Origin: Patescibacteria group bacterium
GTDB taxonomy: Bacteria; Patescibacteriota; Minisyncoccia; JAHIHE01; JAGLIN01
DNA: 64,000 nt
Reading direction: 5' to 3'
Assembly (NCBI GenBank): GCA_029210775.1
Contig: JARGGI010000002.1
Coordinates: 76,478-140,477, forward strand
Part shown: positions 979 through 59,263 of the stretch, piece after piece
Layout: each line of letters begins with the position of its first letter
How positions within the stretch are numbered: the stretch's first letter is position 1
The notes under the pieces: model-generated
What the model saw: only the letters and a program-made list of their open reading frames with translations
What the model was told of the DNA's origin: nothing
Database searches by the model: none
Translations under genes and position numbers: made by a program

Positions 979-1091
979 ATATATTTGAATTTATTAATTC
1001 TAACTTATTTTATAAAATACTAAGCACTATTATCATTGCAAGTAATCCTGCAGGACGAAGTAACAATCCCAAAATTAAGTTCCTTACGCGT

Positions 1092-1137
1092 AGTCATGAG
1101 ATTGCTTCGTTCGTTGCAATTCCCTCGCAATGACACC
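1092..1137. repeat. GC-rich palindromic MITE-like unit (family A: GATTGCTTCG...CTCGCAATGACA)
   Basis: agtcatgagattgcttcgttcgttgcaattccctcgcaatgacacc. Same core as units at 30441-30480, 41133-41164 and 51207-51238. Intergenic, GC-rich island in AT-rich DNA. Confidence 0.6.
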
Positions 1138-7439: not shown

Positions 7440-7466
7440 GGGTTTTGATTAGTTTTTAGTGAATCT

Positions 7467-7496
7467 CCCTGTGGCTCCGAGGCGGAGACCACAGGG
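7467..7496 (-). promoter_or_regulatory. GC-rich 13-bp-stem hairpin between the two M48 genes (terminator or leader element)
   Basis: ccctgtgg-ctccg-agg-cggag-a-ccacaggg. A nearly perfect extended stem in a 240-nt unusually GC-rich spacer, about 25 nt upstream of the ATG of 5847..7439. No U-tract follows. Confidence 0.4.
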
Positions 7497-7678
7497 CGTC
7501 AAGTTGTAATTCAAAGCTCGAAGAGTTTTAACTGCTTGGCGTCTTCTTTTCTGCCTTGCTTCTCTATGTATTTCTCAATGACTGCTTTGTTGCCTCTGCC
7601 ACTTACTGTCTTAAATTAAAAAACATATATCAGCTAAATATGTATTATTTTTTTATATTTTAATAATCATTATAAAAT

Positions 7679-11379: not shown

Positions 11380-11555
11380 TTTTGTATTATAAATTTTATA
11401 TGACAGTTTTGCGCGCATAGTTACGGGATTGCCACGGTCATGTCTCCCTCTTAATAACAGCAATATGTCATATTTTACTAAACTCTAAAACTTTTTGGCA
11501 CTTCTTTTTCTTTCGGCAACGAAACGAAAGCGAAAAAGCTCCAAATTTATTCAAT

Positions 11556-12176
11556 TTACCCAACAAACTCCTTTACTTTTTTTCGCAATTCCTTTTTTAT
11601 CTTATCCCAATCCGCACTTTCAAGCATCAATGGCATTGGATCTTGCTCTGCGTCCTGAAAATAAATCAAGCTTTTCAGAATATGCAATTGACTGTATTTT
11701 ATCTCTTTGTATTTTTTATCAAAAAAAGATAAAATCTCTTTCAAAGAATATTTTTTAAGCAGAAAATATAAATCTATAAAATCCTTCTTGCTTCCTCTGC
11801 TTGAAATTGCGTCTATCTTCATGCAAGCAATATCTTGGGCACTTGCTAATTTTAAATTCTTGCCGTATTTGATTAAAGGAAACAGCATTTTATATTTATA
11901 TCCCAAAAAGCTGATTTTAACTCCGTTTATGCTTGCGTTTAAAGTTCTTTTTTCTTCGGAGTAAACTTTCAATTTCCCTATTTGCGTTAAAATGGTTTTT
12001 AATTCTTTCGTGAAAAAATCATTTTTTGAGAATAAATCAAGATCAATTGATTTTCTATGTCCCAATTGCAACGCCAAAGCAGTCCCGCCGGCCAAATAGA
12101 AATCTTTAATTATTTCTATTTTGTCTAACGATTCCAAAACGCACTTTGTTTTTGTATTGATGACTTTTTCGTACAT
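11556..12176 (-). CDS. nucleotidyltransferase, AbiEii/AbiGii toxin family-like (short form)
   Basis: 206 aa. N-terminal LAGGTALALQLGHRKSIDLDLF fits the Pol-beta NTase motif hG[GS]x9-13DhD and the GGTAL...RxSxDLDF pattern typical of AbiEii-family proteins. Confidence 0.55.
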   Translation of the reverse strand: MYEKVINTKTKCVLESLDKIEIIKDFYLAGGTALALQLGHRKSIDLDLFSKNDFFTKELKTILTQIGKLKVYSEEKRTLNASINGVKISFLGYKYKMLFPLIKYGKNLKLASAQDIACMKIDAISSRGSKKDFIDLYFLLKKYSLKEILSFFDKKYKEIKYSQLHILKSLIYFQDAEQDPMPLMLESADWDKIKKELRKKVKEFVG

Positions 12177-12415
12177 TTTTTATTAACTGACAAGTTAAAT
12201 ATAAGCTCCCAAAAATTAGCGTTTTTTTTATCGGGATAATTAATTTTCAAAGCCGCTTCTTTTATTTTTTCATACGGATAACGTTTCTTTAAAATATCAT
12301 AATCCTTCTTATCTCCAAACAACAAAACCCGCTTTATAATAAAATCAGCGTTCTCTTTATAGTCAAGATTTTCAAAATCAACATCCCAAAACAAATGTTT
12401 ATCTATTTTAGCCAT
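12125..12415 (-). CDS. small protein overlapping the AbiEii-like gene by 52 nt (putative cognate partner/antitoxin)
   Basis: 96 aa (MAKIDKHLFWDVDFENLDYKENADFIIKRVLLFGDKKDYDILKKRY...). The overlap implies translational coupling. The function call is inference from gene context. Confidence 0.35.
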   Translation of the reverse strand: MAKIDKHLFWDVDFENLDYKENADFIIKRVLLFGDKKDYDILKKRYPYEKIKEAALKINYPDKKNANFWELIFNLSVNKKCTKKSSIQKQSAFWNR

Positions 12416-13008: not shown

Positions 13009-13203
13009 ATGTTTTTCCTTTCTTTTTATTAATTAATTTTGATTATTCATAACTATTTAATAATATCCATTTTATAGAATAATATCATAAATTTATTATT
13101 TTATCAAAAAAAGTTATAAATATTAATCAAGGCCTTAAGAGACAGTTAGAATTATTAAGAGCCTCAGCAAGTTCTTTTTAATAGGACTTACAAATATAAT
13201 AAA

Positions 13204-13234
13204 AAAGACAGTCCTTATAAAAAGGACTGTCTTT
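13204..13234 (-). terminator. rho-independent terminator of groES-groEL
   Basis: aaagacagtcctt-ataaaa-aggactgtcttt inverted repeat directly downstream of the groEL stop. On the minus-strand RNA it is followed by UUUUUUAUUAUAUUU. Confidence 0.7.
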
Positions 13235-13257
13235 GGTTTAATGTTATAAATTAAAAA

Positions 13258-14950: not shown

Positions 14951-14985
14951 GATTGTCATTCTAAAACGAGTTCGGAATGACAATC
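14951..14985. repeat. minimal palindromic MITE-like unit in groES-groEL spacer
   Basis: gattgtcattc-taaaacgagttcg-gaatgacaatc: perfect 11-bp inverted termini TTGTCATTC/GAATGACAA, the same termini as the other dispersed elements. Confidence 0.6.
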
Positions 14986-15364: not shown

Positions 15365-15391
15365 TTAGCACTCTGACTTATTGAGTGCTAA
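15365..15391 (-). promoter_or_regulatory. CIRCE element (HrcA operator) upstream of groES
   Basis: TTAGCACTC-tgacttatt-GAGTGCTAA. A perfect match to the CIRCE consensus TTAGCACTC-N9-GAGTGCTAA, 72 nt upstream of the groES ATG. Confidence 0.9.
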
Positions 15392-15395
15392 TAAT

Positions 15396-15423
15396 ATTAT
15401 ATTCGTTTAATAAAAAGTGTCAA
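15396..15423 (-). promoter_or_regulatory. sigma70-type promoter of groESL
   Basis: Minus strand reads TTGACA-(16 nt)-TATAAT (rc of tgtcaa at 15418-15423 and attata at 15396-15401). The predicted start falls inside CIRCE, the classic arrangement. Confidence 0.6.
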
Positions 15424-15541: not shown

Positions 15542-16612
15542 TTATACATTTAATCCCGAATCTTTTTGACTGGCAAATTCAAAAATTCCCAATTCTTTCA
15601 TTTTTTGATTAAACTCTGGAATGATGTGACTTTCATGCGAATCAGGATGAAATTCAAGCTGTTCGTTACTAATCGTGATTCGTCCACCCTTTTTCATATT
15701 AAGAGGATCTTTTTTTATTCTGTTTGTTTGAATTTCTGACATTTTCTTTTCAAAATAATCCCCCATTTTTCCAGATAAAGTAAATTCAAAAATTTTAGCA
15801 ATTAAAGAAAGCACCTTGCTTCTCTTGATGCTTCTCAATCCTTCAATTTCTGAAAATTCATAATTTTCAAGATATTTTTTCATCCACTCGTTTGCTTTTT
15901 GAAATTCTAAAAATAATTTTCTATCTTTATCACTATTATAAATGCTCAAAATGTGATAATAGAGCTGTGCTGTATAAAGACTTTCAAATGGAATTCGGAG
16001 AGACTTATCAGTAATATAATGATTCAGACATATCATATCTTCGGTTTTATTTTTATGTCTTCTAACTCTCAAGAGAGACGTTAAGAGAGTAAAAAATGTT
16101 CGAACAGTCCATATTTTCCCCTTTTTTGCAACAATCATCAAATCTACATCCGAATCTTTTCTGGGATTTCCAAGGGAAAAAGACCCACTTCCCATAACCA
16201 ACTTTGCAAATGGCACGATTTGCATAATCCAAAATATCTTCTTCGATTTTTTCCATTTACTATCCCAAATTTTTTTTCGATTTAATCTCTGCTCAACAAT
16301 TTCATCTCGTCCTTTTAAAAAATAAAACCCAAAGTTCTGATCTAAATTATTTTTTAGATATTCGCTGATATTCAATAATTCAATAACTTCTGAGAAAGAT
16401 TCACTTGTATAAGGAAGTGATAATGACCGTAACAATTTCGTATTTAAATTCATATGCATATTATTTTGGTATTGCTTCGACGATTTCTCCTTACAATGAC
16501 AATCCTTAATCAAATAAAAAAAAATCTCAAAGCTAGTGAGAGGATAATTCAAAATATCATAATAAACAACGGTCGCGAGGATTTGTTTTTCTAAGATTGT
16601 TGAAGTTGACAT
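15542..16612 (-). CDS. stand-alone Pol-beta-superfamily nucleotidyltransferase-domain protein (unknown function)
   Basis: 356 aa. Central LVMGSGSFSLGNPRKDSDVDLMIV fits GSx9-11[DS]DxDh. About 140-aa N-terminal and 190-aa C-terminal regions with no recognisable motifs. Monocistronic: own terminator, separated from groES by a promoter. Confidence 0.45.
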   Translation of the reverse strand: MSTSTILEKQILATVVYYDILNYPLTSFEIFFYLIKDCHCKEKSSKQYQNNMHMNLNTKLLRSLSLPYTSESFSEVIELLNISEYLKNNLDQNFGFYFLKGRDEIVEQRLNRKKIWDSKWKKSKKIFWIMQIVPFAKLVMGSGSFSLGNPRKDSDVDLMIVAKKGKIWTVRTFFTLLTSLLRVRRHKNKTEDMICLNHYITDKSLRIPFESLYTAQLYYHILSIYNSDKDRKLFLEFQKANEWMKKYLENYEFSEIEGLRSIKRSKVLSLIAKIFEFTLSGKMGDYFEKKMSEIQTNRIKKDPLNMKKGGRITISNEQLEFHPDSHESHIIPEFNQKMKELGIFEFASQKDSGLNV

Positions 16613-17250: not shown

Positions 17251-17321
17251 AATAATTCCCAAAACTAAATTCAGGATTTCCACGGACTAATCGCCCTCAC
17301 AATGACAAAATATAACAAAAT

Positions 17322-22835: not shown

Positions 22836-22865
22836 ATTAGCTTTTTAGGTTTTTTATTATATTCT

Positions 22866-22960
22866 GTCATTGTAAGGAGGCTGAACGAGCAAAGTGAAAG
22901 AAATGCCGACCAAATAATCCCAAAATTAATTTTAAGTAATTATTATTATCTCCAATTAGT
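22866..22960. repeat. composite MITE-like repeat region
   Basis: tgtcattgtaaggaggc...aataatcccaaaattaa shares the TTGTCATTGTAAG start with 42836 and the AATCCCAAAATTAA block with 1062-1077. Followed by cctgcctaccgaaagacaagcc, related to 27975-27998. Confidence 0.45.
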
Positions 22961-23363: not shown

Positions 23364-23826
23364 AAGTAGCGCATTCCAGCAACAATAGAAGAAAATACAC
23401 TTCCTTCAGTAAAAAATTTCACTGTTGCTATACCATAAGGACTGTTCCGAATATTAAACCTATTAATATACCTCTATCTTTCAACCTAATTTCCCTCCAA
23501 ATCTGTATTTTTTATTAATCACCTTATCTTATAAAGCAATTTAGTTTTATTGAAACTAATTCAAAACTATTACAATTAAAAAATATGTCAACACGTTGTT
23601 CGTCATCTCCATGAAGGCGGAGATTCAGATAAAATGTCATTAGGCATTATTTAAAAATAAAAACTTTAAAAATAAATTTAGTGATAATTTTCACGATAGA
23701 TTGTCATAATGATATTCTAAAATAGTGATACTTCACTTGGATTCCCGCCAGAGTTTATACTTGAATTAATTTCAGTGCGGGAATAATAAATTATTTACCA
23801 ACTAAACAATTTAGCAGTATAATTTT

Positions 23827-25074: not shown

Positions 25075-25739
25075 TAAAATAAATATAGTTTATCTTTATT
25101 TATTCGCCATGCATTGTTATCTTCTTGAAATTAGACAATAAATAACAAAACCTGTCAAACATAAAATTATCTTTGTTAGTTATTTCTTGTTCTATTATTT
25201 TAAACATATTTATTTCTGAAGTATTAAGTAAAATTTTTAGTTTTTTTAACAATAACTTCAGATAATTTTGTGTTACCAAAACTTCATTTTGACATTTAAT
25301 TTTGCCCTTTTCTTTAGAAACATTAATTTCTAATTTTTGTTCACAATTAATCAAAAAACATTCTTTCTTAATTGACAATGTTTCTTTTATACATATGATG
25401 ATGTTTATAATTTTTTCAATATCTACCACCCTTTGAGTGTCTGATAATTGATATTCTAATAATTCATCTATTATTTCTAAAATTTCCCTCCCGATTTTAA
25501 TGCTTTTTTATTCTCTTTGAGAAACTACTAATATTCTTGCATGTTTATAGAATCAGTCAATAAACATTGCCTGTTATTCTGAACTTGATTCAGAATCTGT
25601 CCTATTAATAAGTTTTGATTCGATATATTTCACAAGATTTGGCGTATCAGATGAAAGATAATAAAATAAATTTAGGATGACAAATAATTTGTTATGAGTT
25701 ACAAATTATAAGTTGCAAGTTATTTTTATAAATTAATCA

Positions 25740-27962: not shown

Positions 27963-28010
27963 TCAATTGTCATTCTGAACCTGCCTACCGGACAGGCAGG
28001 CTTGTCGAAA
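27963..28010. repeat. MITE-like module (TTGTCATTCTGAACCTGCCTACCGGACAGGCAGGCTTGTCGAA)
   Basis: Near-identical in inverse orientation to the internal module of the 46457-46587 element (ttcgacaagcctgtctgccgacaggcaggctcagggtgacaa). Confidence 0.6.
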
Positions 28011-30247: not shown

Positions 30248-30381
30248 GGGGTGAGAAATCCAGTATTATTTTTTCTAAACATTACTGACATTGCCTACTT
30301 TTAAAATTTATTACTCCTGTTTGTTATTATCCTACAAATTAAGATTACCGTCAAGACCAGTTATCCACAGATAGTGCGTTC

Positions 30382-30480
30382 TGTTATTGCGAATCCGCAG
30401 GCGAAGCAATCCCATGACTATGCGCAAAGAATTCAGTTACGGGATTGCTTCAGTCGTTGCGACTCCTTCGCAATGACAAT
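30382..30480. repeat. MITE-like inverted pair (family A)
   Basis: tgttattgcgaatccgcaggcgaagcaatccc ... gggattgcttcagtcgttgcgactccttcgcaatgacaat: two units in opposite orientation forming a ~100-bp long-range palindrome. Confidence 0.6.
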
Positions 30481-40960: not shown

Positions 40961-41040
40961 ATAAAAAAATTAATAATAATTTAGAATGACAAATTAAGAT
41001 GATAAAATTATTCTAATTATTGTGGCTACTAACCTTCTTT

Positions 41041-41165
41041 GTTATTACGAAAAGCATCAGCAACAAAGCAATCTCTTGCTTTCGTTCTATCGATAAAATG
41101 TAAAATAACTTTTGATTTGTTTTTATAGCTCTGAGATTGCTTCGCTGATGCTCGCAATGACAGAT
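41041..41165. repeat. MITE-like inverted pair (family A)
   Basis: gttattacgaaaagcatcagcaacaaagcaatctc ... gagattgcttcgctgatgctcgcaatgacag. Confidence 0.5.
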
Positions 41166-42835: not shown

Positions 42836-42900
42836 ATTGTCATTGTAAGCGAAGCGTGGCAATCCTATAATTAATATCCTTACACATAGTTTTAGTGTTG
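42836..42900. repeat. MITE-like unit (TTGTCATTGTAAGCGAAGCGTGGCAATCC)
   Basis: Closest to the presumed family-A consensus. Followed by a degenerate partner (gtgttgcttcataactta). Confidence 0.55.
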
Positions 42901-46127: not shown

Positions 46128-46352
46128 ATGAATCAAAATATTATACAACCAAAGAAACAGTGTCTTTTCTGCATTGAAAAGGAGAGAAATGTGGACTATA
46201 AAGACCCTCAAACACTAAGAAGATTTGTAAGTCAACGTGCCAAAGTTTTACAACCCAAAAGAACTGGTGCTTGCACAAAACATCAAAGACATGTTGCAAA
46301 CGCAATCAAAAGAGCGAGATTTATGGGATTACTTCCTTATGTTTCAAAATAA
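46128..46352 (+). CDS. rpsR: 30S ribosomal protein S18
   Basis: 74 aa. CLFCIEKERNVDYKDPQTLRRFVSQRAKVLQPKRTGACTKHQRHVANAIKRARFMGLLPY. Confidence 0.9.
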   Translation: MNQNIIQPKKQCLFCIEKERNVDYKDPQTLRRFVSQRAKVLQPKRTGACTKHQRHVANAIKRARFMGLLPYVSK

Positions 46353-46368
46353 CAATAATTCAAATCAA

Positions 46369-46405
46369 AAAAATATACCAATTCAAAGATTGGTATATTT
46401 TTTAT
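46369..46405 (+). terminator. rho-independent terminator after rpsR
   Basis: aaatatacca-attcaaaga-ttggtatattt followed by ttttt. Confidence 0.65.
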
Positions 46406-46456
46406 TCTAAAATAATTTAATACAAGCACTAGACTGGCTTATTTGATTTTCTTTAA

Positions 46457-46587
46457 ATTACGAAATAACTAAATTTGTCATAGTGAGCTTGTCGAACTAT
46501 GATAAATTTGATGCATTTTCCACTATTCGACAAGCCTGTCTGCCGACAGGCAGGCTCAGGGTGACAAGTATATTGAATTTCGTAATT
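46457..46587. mobile_element. MITE-like element, family B copy 1 (131 bp, 11-bp perfect TIRs AATTACGAAAT/ATTTCGTAATT)
   Basis: About 95% identical to the copy at 58981-59092, apart from a 20-bp internal insertion (cctgtctgccgacaggcagg) that is itself a module seen at 27963-28010. Confidence 0.7.
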
Positions 46588-46601
46588 TAAGGTAATTTTA
46601 A

Positions 46602-50859: not shown

Positions 50860-51147
50860 TTATAGCTTAAAAAAGCTTCTGAGGCAAAAAAATGTATTAG
50901 TCCAACACATTCTGGACAATAAATTATTATTTATCATATAGTCTATGGGGGATGTTAAATTTAAACTCCAGTGGTATCTTTTCGTATTATACCATATTAA
51001 CCTGTTCACCAGTTTATGATTGAATTCGTTTGTATCTTGCAGTAATGATTTATTTAAATCAACATTTTTTTCTTGAGTGGTTTGGCTGTATTTTTCAATA
51101 TGTTCGTTTCTGTATAGCCGTCTATCGTAATTCCAATAGTGAGTCAC
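50860..51147 (-). pseudogene. remnant of an IS3/IS481-type transposase (C-terminal part of DDE integrase core only)
   Basis: LVNRLIWYNTKRYHWSLNLTSPIDYM matches the conserved YNxxRxHxSLxxxTPxE end of rve-type integrase cores. There is no upstream catalytic region. The N-terminal part of the ORF overlaps MITE sequence. Confidence 0.5.
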
Positions 51148-51285
51148 CTTTTTTCTTTTACTTTGAATTACGAAACGATATATTATTACTTTACGAATTT
51201 AATTTCGGGATTGCCATGCTTCGCTCGCAATGACAGGGAAAAAACATTGTCGTTGCGAGAATGAACGACGAAGCAATCTCGAGTC
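51125..51285. repeat. composite repeat: family-B fragment (gaattacgaaac...) + family-A inverted pair
   Basis: gggattgccatgcttcgctcgcaatgacaggg (51207-51238) and its inverted partner ttgtcgttgcgagaatgaacgacgaagcaatctc (51247-51280). Preceded by a degenerate family-B end. Confidence 0.55.
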
Positions 51286-58430: not shown

Positions 58431-58980
58431 ATATTAAAAAAATAAACTTGTTAATAAATTATATAAAAAATTAAATAAAAAATTGAAATTTAATTTCAAA
58501 GACACAAAAACAAGCCTAAACAGCAAACACTGCAGGCATAAAATACATCCTTTCTTATTTGATGATTGTTTGAATCATAAATTGAATTGTTGACTTGAAT
58601 ACCAAGTAATTTTTATTATATACAATATAAAAATATTGTCAAGGAAAATGTGGCTCTACACTAATAACTGTGGTGGATAACTAAAGAAGTGGTAGAATTA
58701 TATTGATAAATTAACAATTCACACCGCTCCTATCAAAAATGATATTATAAAACTGTTTTTAGATGTCAATCCTGGGTGACGACAGTAAGAGTCAAGAGAT
58801 CCCTCTTAATCATGTTAAATCTTATCAAATATCAATTCCCAGATAAGAGCGATTTAACAAGGATGCTTTGTATCTTGTAGGATGTCTGTTTGGCTTTACG
58901 CATTTGCGTATAAAGATGCCCCACAAGATGCAGGGCATTCTCAAAACAACTTTAGACTATAAAAAAACAACCTTGCCTTG

Positions 58981-59092
58981 AATTATGAAATAGCTAAATT
59001 TGTTATAGTGAGCTTGTCGAACTATGATAAATTTGATGCATTTTCTACCCTTCGACAAGCTCAGGGTGACAAATATATTGAATTTCGTAATT
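58981..59092. mobile_element. MITE-like element, family B copy 2 (112 bp; TIRs AATTATGAAAT/ATTTCGTAATT)
   Basis: Collinear with 46457-46587 but lacks its 20-bp insert. Immediately followed by another palindromic unit cttgtcatatttcgtttcgctacgaccggaatgacag (59101-59137). Confidence 0.7.
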
Positions 59093-59263
59093 CAAAGAAC
59101 CTTGTCATATTTCGTTTCGCTACGACCGGAATGACAGTTATAAATTATTATTTTCTTTAATATAAAACTACATAACTAAAGTCATGTTAGCTTTTGCTCC
59201 ACTTCTATACTTCAACCACCACACATTTTGACAAAGAGCTGTAATTTAAACAAGACAAGCAAT

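Follow-up and report, generated by a model that had tools for sequence, protein, structure and literature searches.

The present analysis deals with a stretch of 64,000 nucleotides from a Patescibacteria group bacterium (assembly GCA_029210775.1, contig JARGGI010000002.1, positions 76,478 to 140,477), referred to as the window, and with the palindromic repeats dispersed in it, above all a long hairpin-forming element at 46451-46592 in the spacer between rpsR and recA. The window has a GC content of about 31%, about 14% of it is intergenic DNA, and its genes encode GroES/EL, UvrA, RecA, FtsK, RpoB/C, SSB and similar housekeeping functions. Comparison of the window RecA and UvrA identified Paceibacteria and Parcubacteria as the nearest named relatives, and no relative above 86% was found in the UvrA homolog search. 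The gene rpsR, encoding ribosomal protein S18 (46128-46352, + strand), is absent from the list of open reading frames (ORFs) compiled at a cutoff of 80 aa. Downstream of the gene lies an intrinsic-terminator hairpin of the classic type (46370-46405), which is separate from the element.

The element flagged at this locus, hereafter copy 1, is 142 bp long, its limits being set by terminal inverted repeats and by a 149-nt gap in a related contig. The inverted repeats are 16 bp in length (CYTTRAATTAYGAAAT) and were found at the exact element ends in eight copies. In copy 1, the left one is CTTTAAATTACGAAAT (46451-46466) and the right one is ATTTCGTAATTTAAGG (46577-46592). Copy 1 is bordered by TGATTTT on the left (46444-46450) and by TAATTTT on the right (46593-46599), which match at 6/7 positions. 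In parallel, a second copy of 122 bp was found at 58976-59097 between perfect 7-bp duplications, AACCTTG (58969-58975 and 59098-59104). An earlier note on this DNA had singled out the two long copies as near-identical, which is borne out by 111/122 identical positions (91%) and a single 20-nt indel. The same note gave them 11-bp terminal inverted repeats, which is too short since the true 16-bp repeats close the elements at 46451-46592 and 58976-59097, and it took TTGTCAT...ATGACAA for the element termini, whereas these sequences end an inner hairpin pair and not the transposon. Copy 1 folds as a long hairpin with z = -7.6 (DNA parameters), and both long copies reach z values of -6 to -8. Both are 92-94% identical to copies found in the Patescibacteria metagenome-assembled genome (MAG) KA31, and copy 2 is 94-97% identical to copies at the KA31 loci L123 and L124 (loci of related genomes are labelled in this way throughout). 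Copy 2 was inserted directly against another TGTCA...TGACA palindrome (59103-59136, with a weak fold, z = -2.0), whose first two bases are shared with the duplication of copy 2, a placement that fits the view that the palindromes act at the DNA level.

Close syntenic comparison was made with one contig, L151 (from the Joint Genome Institute, JGI), whose RecA is 98% identical to that of the window. Synteny between the two spans about 42.7-51.0 kb of the window. The spacer between rpsR and recA was found to be 105 bp long in L151 against 249 bp in the window, and the site occupied by TGATTTT is present there as a single copy. When all single deletions were tested, the one that best restored colinearity with L151 was exactly 149 nt, starting at 46444-46451. 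This is the length of the 142-bp element plus one copy of the 7-bp duplication, so that L151 carries an exactly empty site and the element shows a presence/absence polymorphism, filled in the window and empty in L151.

Across related genomes, copies of 122-176 bp were found, hairpin-forming and without coding capacity, and with target-site duplications of 6-7 bp. Eight of them have intact inverted repeats, namely the two of the window and L123, L124a, L124b, L138, L149 and L154, the latter six lying in five Patescibacteria loci. All eight (8/8) are flanked by direct repeats matching at least 5/6 positions, and in 5/8 the match is perfect. At random sites, the same search with a boundary tolerance of ±1 gave 0.078 per site at 5/6 or better and 0.0074 for perfect repeats. 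Both target-site duplications and further copies in related genomes had been proposed as checks in the earlier note, and both are thereby at hand. Because it combines inverted repeats, a duplication of 6-7 bp, the lack of an ORF, multiple copies and an empty site, the flagged long element is a non-autonomous mobile element, namely a MITE (miniature inverted-repeat transposable element). No match to it was found in annotated plasmids or phages. A solitary remnant of its inverted repeat, TTGAATTACGAAAC, remains at 51163-51177 (+), beside the hairpins at 51206-51281 and a fragment of an integrase gene.

In the same genomes, a 99-nt non-coding stretch upstream of rpoB (window 58619-58713) was found to be 81% identical to positions 7795-7891 of L124 in KA31. 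In KA31 a MITE end directly follows this stretch, which is not the case in the window. The stretch may correspond to a second insertion polymorphism or to a conserved promoter region.

The core of the MITE consists of two inverted units, termed class 2, each made up of a TGTC tag, a stem of its own and a loop that contains GAGCTTGTCGAA. In copy 1, the left inner hairpin (46476-46502, +) has the stem ATAG/CTAT and a loop with GAGCTTGTCGAA, and the right one (46520-46566, -) reads TGTCACCCTGAGC...TTGTCGAA with the stem ACCC/GGGT. The loop of this right unit contains a nested 20-nt mini-hairpin at about 46535-46554, and it is this mini-hairpin that makes the difference between the two copies of the window. 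It had been described earlier as a nested insertion that also occurs as a module on its own. It is indeed the sole indel between the copies, but the sequence at 27966-28010 (+) is not a free-standing module and forms another unit, TGTCATTCTGAAC...CTTGTCGAA, with the same nested hairpin CCTGCCT..AGGCAGG at the same loop position.

The left inner unit is conserved in 30 genome loci. A scan of the genome collection found the class-2 core in KA31, Parcubacteria RS_2_6, Moraniibacteriota and Saccharibacteria, mostly with recognisable outer inverted repeats, and also without them in Dehalococcoidia, Nitrospirota, Gallionella, Methylococcaceae, Hyphomicrobiales, Caldilinea and Mariniphaga. Among 30 copies, compensation of C-G to T-A was observed in the stem of the right unit (17 against 8), while the long-range alternative pairing fails at the covarying positions of this unit. 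As the right-unit stem covaries and the long-range alternative does not, each core unit is a hairpin in its own right. Moreover, three different cores occur within one and the same shell of inverted repeats, namely the class-2 pair just described, a pair of the type termed class 1 below in L154, and an ATTTC/GAAAT-type pair in L124a and L149. The shell is a mobile chassis and the hairpin pair an interchangeable core. In L129 and L141, the class-2 core was seen to be bracketed by parS-like inverted sequences, ACGTGAAACAATTG ... CAATTGTTTCACGT.

With about 100-150 bp, inverted repeats, a fixed duplication, multiple copies, insertion polymorphism and no ORF, the shell resembles classical MITEs such as the Neisseria Correia elements and MITEAba12 (PMC6382973). 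It differs from them in that no matching insertion sequence was found here and in that its interior is an interchangeable pair of hairpins and not a deleted transposase gene.

Beside the MITE, the window is rich in short hairpins. Allowing for at most 2 mismatches, 17 occurrences of the 12-base head TGTCATTGCGAG were counted in the window where 2.99 were expected, and 0/100 shuffles reached 17. In the same way, the tail motif was found 13 times against 6.2 expected and TTGTCAT 41 times against 14.8. A unit of class 1 reads TGTC-ATTGC-GAG-[variable]-CGAA-GCAAT-C-Y-C and comprises an unpaired TGTC tag, a 5-bp base stem, a purine-rich GAG/CGAA internal loop, a variable apical mini-hairpin and a C after the palindrome. 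TGTC stands directly before the stem in all clear units, the tag being CGTC at 23600, and the stems open with A-T, T-A (ATTGC...GCAAT, ATAG...CTAT, ATTC...GAAT). The variable part, which measures 4-24 nt in 168 copies from viral contigs, is itself a mini-hairpin (for example TCCCGATTTATCGGGA or ACCTGCACGCTCTTCCGCAGGT). Its shortest form is C-GNA-G, and such loops are frequent among the inserts; triloops of this kind are a typical feature of highly stable mini-hairpins of DNA. In the apical helix, 84 double-sided changed cells were counted against 31 in column shuffles, and none of 500 shuffles reached 84. Sliding the partners lowers pairing in this helix from 89% to 20-50%. The covariation together with this collapse on sliding shows that the hairpin fold is under selection. 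An exact-pattern scan of IMG/VR found such units on at least 120 contigs of 34 to 68% GC. In general, both single hairpins and inverted pairs are met with, the pairs having their tags outside and a conserved spacer.

The window was searched, with filters off, with a covariance model, R1, trained on 63 distinct units from IMG/VR viral contigs only. Six copies were found at E<1e-4 (41132-41164, 1097-1137, 51246-51281, 30440-30480, 51206-51237 and 30380-30414), all of them intergenic and with a GC content of 0.47-0.59, together with two marginal ones (16467-16503 and 42836-42867) and about five decayed ones. Most window units belong to inverted pairs with the tags outside, as do the units of the MITE cores, and apart from one pair with the tags inside the remainder are decayed singletons. 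One such pair, with a 27-nt spacer, lies at 1029-1137, where R1 gave 36.7 bits at 1097-1137(-) and a weak match at 1029-1071(+). Another with a 27-nt spacer lies at 30380-30480 (24.3 and 33.1 bits; fold z = -4.5), and a third at 41038-41164 has a 56-nt AT-rich spacer (43.2 bits at 41132-41164(-) and 12 bits at 41038-41076(+)). The 27-nt spacers of the first two pairs are related and were observed to be inverted between the two loci relative to the arm-specific apical hairpins, as though the spacer had been turned round between its inverted arms. At 51206-51281, two class-1 hairpins (26.5 and 33.8 bits) have their tags facing each other.

Upstream of ychF, a class-1 hairpin with a spacer and a decayed partner arm was found at 42836-42900 (+; R1 E = 0.08), which is also present in L151. 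Ahead of ychF, the window and L151 are homologous from the head of this unit onwards, and everything further upstream differs. The unit at 42836 thus marks a synteny breakpoint, which fits the DNA-level view. A long class-1 variant, decayed, lies at 22863-22922 (+; E = 0.45) and resembles the long units flanking a GIY-YIG gene in L132 as well as those in L136. Decayed class-1 hairpins were also found at 17272-17309 (-; E = 1.5), 15 nt past the uvrA stop codon, and at 11421-11460 (-), the latter with a spacer remnant and detected from its sequence and the tail-motif scan. Between groES and groEL, a palindrome GATTGTCATTC...GAATGACAATC with 11-bp arms lies at 14951-14985 (fold z = -4.9), and a strongly decayed TGTTATTCTGAAC hairpin stands upstream of tRNA-Leu at 25570-25605 (+).

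The 13 sites listed in the earlier note all carry a palindromic sequence headed by (T)GTCA (13/13), strongly decayed at 11421, 17285 and 25570. Its description of short GC-rich palindromes holds for the six R1 copies against the 31% GC of the window, and the REP-like nature that it offered as an alternative is right for these short palindromes. The mobility that it attributed to the family as a whole was established for the outer shell only, by the empty site and the duplications, the short hairpins having been merged in with it. It had also held the repeats to be absent from coding DNA, which is true of the six clear copies; inside the ORF 15542-16612 stands the marginal copy 16467-16503 (-; E = 0.06), in sense orientation and in frame, with the translation ...KDCHCKEKSSKQYQ..., and if this copy is real, coding DNA may not be wholly free of the repeats. 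Missing from its list was the canonical CGTC-tagged hairpin TCGTCATCTCCATGAAGGCGGAGATTCAGA (TCGTCATCTCC...GGAGATTCAGA) at 23600-23629 (+), which on comparison with the NTS consensus (PMC11893778) is the window sequence nearest to the Neisseria NTS. A decayed unit, ATTCCCGC...GCGGGAATCCAAG, at about 23737-23787 (-) is, with it, the nearest in the window to Neisseria NTS/dRS3. No remnant of a GIY-YIG/Ssn gene was found between the repeats at 23.0-23.8 kb.

Hairpins of this kind have been described in other bacteria. Di Nocera, De Gregorio and Rocco (2013) defined a superfamily of CGTC-tagged repetitive extragenic palindromes (REPs), which includes Neisseria dRS3 and Rickettsia RPE-4 and RPE-6 (PMC3733652). 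In these REPs, the tag is often TGTC, the stem starts with A-T and has 8-9 bp, the loop has 4-5 nt and a 3-nt tail follows (consensus CCA). They lie for the most part outside genes and occur mostly in pairs with the tags outside and conserved spacers of 20-100 bp, Halothiobacillus pairs being nested inside longer palindromes and RPE-4 and RPE-6 having intragenic copies. Neither a dedicated transposase nor a flanking of REP-associated tyrosine transposase (RAYT) genes by CGTC units was reported, and the REPs were known from five phyla (PMC3733652). The hairpins of the window share with them the unpaired C/TGTC tag, the A-T/T-A stem start, the mostly extragenic position, the inverted pairs with tags outside, the conserved spacers, the nesting in a longer palindrome and perhaps the occasional in-frame intragenic copy. 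Their short C-rich tail, C-Y-C, is near the consensus CCA but not identical to it. They differ in their Patescibacteria host and in their presence on viral contigs, outside the five phyla reported, and in that the enclosing palindrome is here a MITE with target-site duplications.

More recently, Chenal et al. (2025) described NTS (CGTCATTCCCGCGMAVGCGGGAATCYRG) and the related SRM motifs, which are hairpins of 20-50 nt (PMC11893778). NTS flanks ssnA, a gene for a 94-aa single-domain GIY-YIG protein, and SsnA binds the hairpin as single-stranded DNA only, cutting a few bases upstream of it. SsnA depends critically on the GTC that precedes the palindrome and on the C that follows it, and the NTS-ssnA-NTS arrangement was noted as insertion-sequence-like (PMC11893778). 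Class-1 units have the same layout, H-GTC-AT[palindrome]AT-C, fall in the same range of hairpin lengths and keep both SsnA-critical positions. GTC and the following C are present in the six clear class-1 units of the window, and among the 63 viral units they were fixed by the search pattern. In class-2 units, G and not C follows the palindrome. In L132, a Moraniibacteriota locus, an 89-aa single-domain GIY-YIG ORF (PF01541, E = 1e-12) was found inside the spacer of a class-1 pair, which is the same repeat-gene-repeat architecture as that of NTS-ssnA. GIY-YIG relatives were also sought in IMG/VR; the only match was of the longer homing-endonuclease type, with no units nearby, and was rejected.

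Judged from their sequence, the hairpins form a new family of sequences within the (C/T)GTC-tagged REP superfamily, related to dRS3-NTS/SRM. By analogy they probably work like SRMs, of which they are candidate and not proven members. The units would most likely act as DNA hairpins extruded from single-stranded DNA, to which small single-domain GIY-YIG Ssn nucleases might bind, cutting a few bases upstream as SsnA does. They would also behave as recombination hot spots and decay in place. Taken as a whole, it appears probable that two nested layers are present, a MITE shell and (C/T)GTC-tagged REP hairpins.

As to the displacement of the shell, the MITE has no coding capacity and is therefore most likely moved in trans, presumably by a transposase making staggered cuts. 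A C-terminal fragment of an rve-type (DDE) integrase, which is an old pseudogene, lies at 50860-51147 (-) upstream of ftsK and is also kept in L151. It was considered as the MITE transposase and rejected, all of its homologs being fragments (77-154 aa). In the same way, pairs of inverted repeats 1-3 kb apart in L168, L274 and L277 were discarded as chance matches in rpoC or phage genes, and the matches to the MITE inverted repeats in IMG/VR are chance matches in coding DNA.

Several observations weigh against the scheme of two nested layers as set out here. About 340 loci and the IMG/VR scan yielded no autonomous element bearing the inverted repeats of the MITE, the homologs of the neighbouring rve fragment lack these repeats as well, and the empty site is known from one relative, L151. 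Unlike the CGTC REPs with their stem of 8-9 bp and loop of 4-5 nt, class-1 units are built from a base stem of 5 bp, an internal loop (GAG/CGAA) and an apical helix of variable length. The published SRM pattern, HGTCWYN(0-2)YYVSBRHN(0-5)WNVSBRGN(0-2)RNCYNB, gave 0 matches in the window (shuffle mean 0.1). Finally, no GIY-YIG gene was found in the 64-kb window or in the relatives' loci, and the link to Ssn is based on one locus, L132, and on analogy with published work.

According to another explanation the hairpins serve at the RNA level, whether as terminators, stabilisers of mRNA 3' ends, processing sites or genes for small RNAs, and it is for this role that they are kept. CGTC REPs have been proposed to act as RNA hairpins (PMC3733652). 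The folds are strong, several units lie just after stop codons or before ribosome-binding sites, and the single units at 11460, 16501, 17307, 22865, 27968, 42838 and 25572 were observed to share the direction of the genes next to them (clear in 6 cases, ambiguous in 1). Nevertheless, a role in RNA appears unlikely. The conserved structured RNA gene that the earlier note had named as the refutation of its view was not encountered, since tRNA-Leu is the sole curated RNA of the window in Rfam 15 at the gathering score, and no family reached this score in 10 unit-rich viral loci. The best sub-threshold match, AaHKsRNA41, had 33 bits against 97 and, like a match to rhtB, was taken as a generic hairpin match. 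No sense bias was observed in 120 viral contigs, where 24 units were sense and 34 antisense by crude gene calls. In addition, the rpsR operon has its own terminator apart from the MITE, the C-GNA-G triloops are of a type usual in very stable DNA mini-hairpins, and the inverted repeats, target-site duplication and empty site are left unaccounted for.

The locus L132 suggests a different and equally improbable idea, according to which a family of GIY-YIG (Ssn-type) elements would act on single-stranded DNA and have the TGTC-tagged hairpin pairs as its mobile ends, with L132 as an example of the autonomous form. If this were true, the pairs would home into palindrome centres, from which the three cores in one shell and the nested mini-hairpins would result, their spread across phyla and phage genomes would be accounted for, and the 'transposase' that has long been missing for CGTC REPs would turn out to be the Ssn nucleases.

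Another reading, slightly less probable still, is that the whole composite of shell and hairpin pair is mobilised by an Ssn-type GIY-YIG nuclease in place of a DDE transposase, the hairpin-ssn-hairpin arrangement of L132 being the autonomous form. The position of the GIY-YIG gene inside a hairpin-pair spacer, the insertion-sequence-like look of NTS-ssnA-NTS (PMC11893778) and the fact that no DDE partner was found are in its favour. However, the L132 element has neither the shell inverted repeats nor a flanking duplication, it is the only such locus, and Ssn has no reported transposition activity. In general, a duplication of fixed length combined with inverted repeats is the classic DDE signature.

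The least likely proposal is that the elements are REP doublets forming hairpins (REPINs), mobilised by the Y1 transposase RAYT of the IS200/IS605 type, or IS200/IS605 derivatives similar to palindrome-associated transposable elements (PATE). REPINs are inverted doublets of tagged hairpins that fold as one long hairpin and were proposed to be non-autonomous mobile elements (Bertels and Rainey 2011, PMC3116915), and the doublets with conserved spacers and the hairpin with a 5' tetranucleotide, as in GTAG REPs, do recall them. Against it, REPINs have a GTAG tag and not TGTC/CGTC, depend on a Y1 transposase, leave no target-site duplication where the MITE has 6-7 bp and are lineage-restricted. 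No ORF of RAYT size and type was found in the window, no Y1 gene lay between inverted units in the loci examined (viral loci hold phage structural genes there), Di Nocera et al. found no RAYT flanked by CGTC units (PMC3733652), and the spread across phyla and viruses is unlike the vertical inheritance generally recognised for REPIN populations.

Some other features of the window lie outside these repeats. A CIRCE-type operator, TTAGCACTC-N9-GAGTGCTAA, was noticed upstream of groES (15370-15396), which implies that the groESL operon would be under HrcA control. A gene for an AbiEii nucleotidyltransferase toxin adjoins that of a DUF6922 protein at 11556-12415 (-), and the two are likely a type IV toxin-antitoxin pair. 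Two strong hairpins from outside the family were also observed, at 7466-7497 and 13189-13249; one is a GC-rich CCCTGTGG...CCACAGGG and the other a terminator-like stem after groEL with a weak Rfam match to rhtB.

A literature search for MITEs or REPINs in Patescibacteria found no papers, and string searches with the repeat sequences returned unrelated primer matches only. Patescibacteria have tiny streamlined genomes, yet in this one selfish or structural repeats persist in two nested layers, one of which has moved recently enough to be polymorphic between relatives with 98% identical RecA. The CGTC-REP/NTS-SRM superfamily, to which the hairpins are assigned from their sequence and architecture, would hence extend to Patescibacteria and to many viral contigs, with a hairpin variant that the published SRM pattern misses. 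In addition, the GIY-YIG protein of L132 and the hairpin TGTCATTGCGAG-(hairpin)-CGAAGCAATCYC (TGTCATTGCGAG...GCAATC) make up a candidate nuclease-substrate pair. On a practical level, such repeats create spurious small ORFs, mark synteny breakpoints and are likely to break metagenome assemblies.

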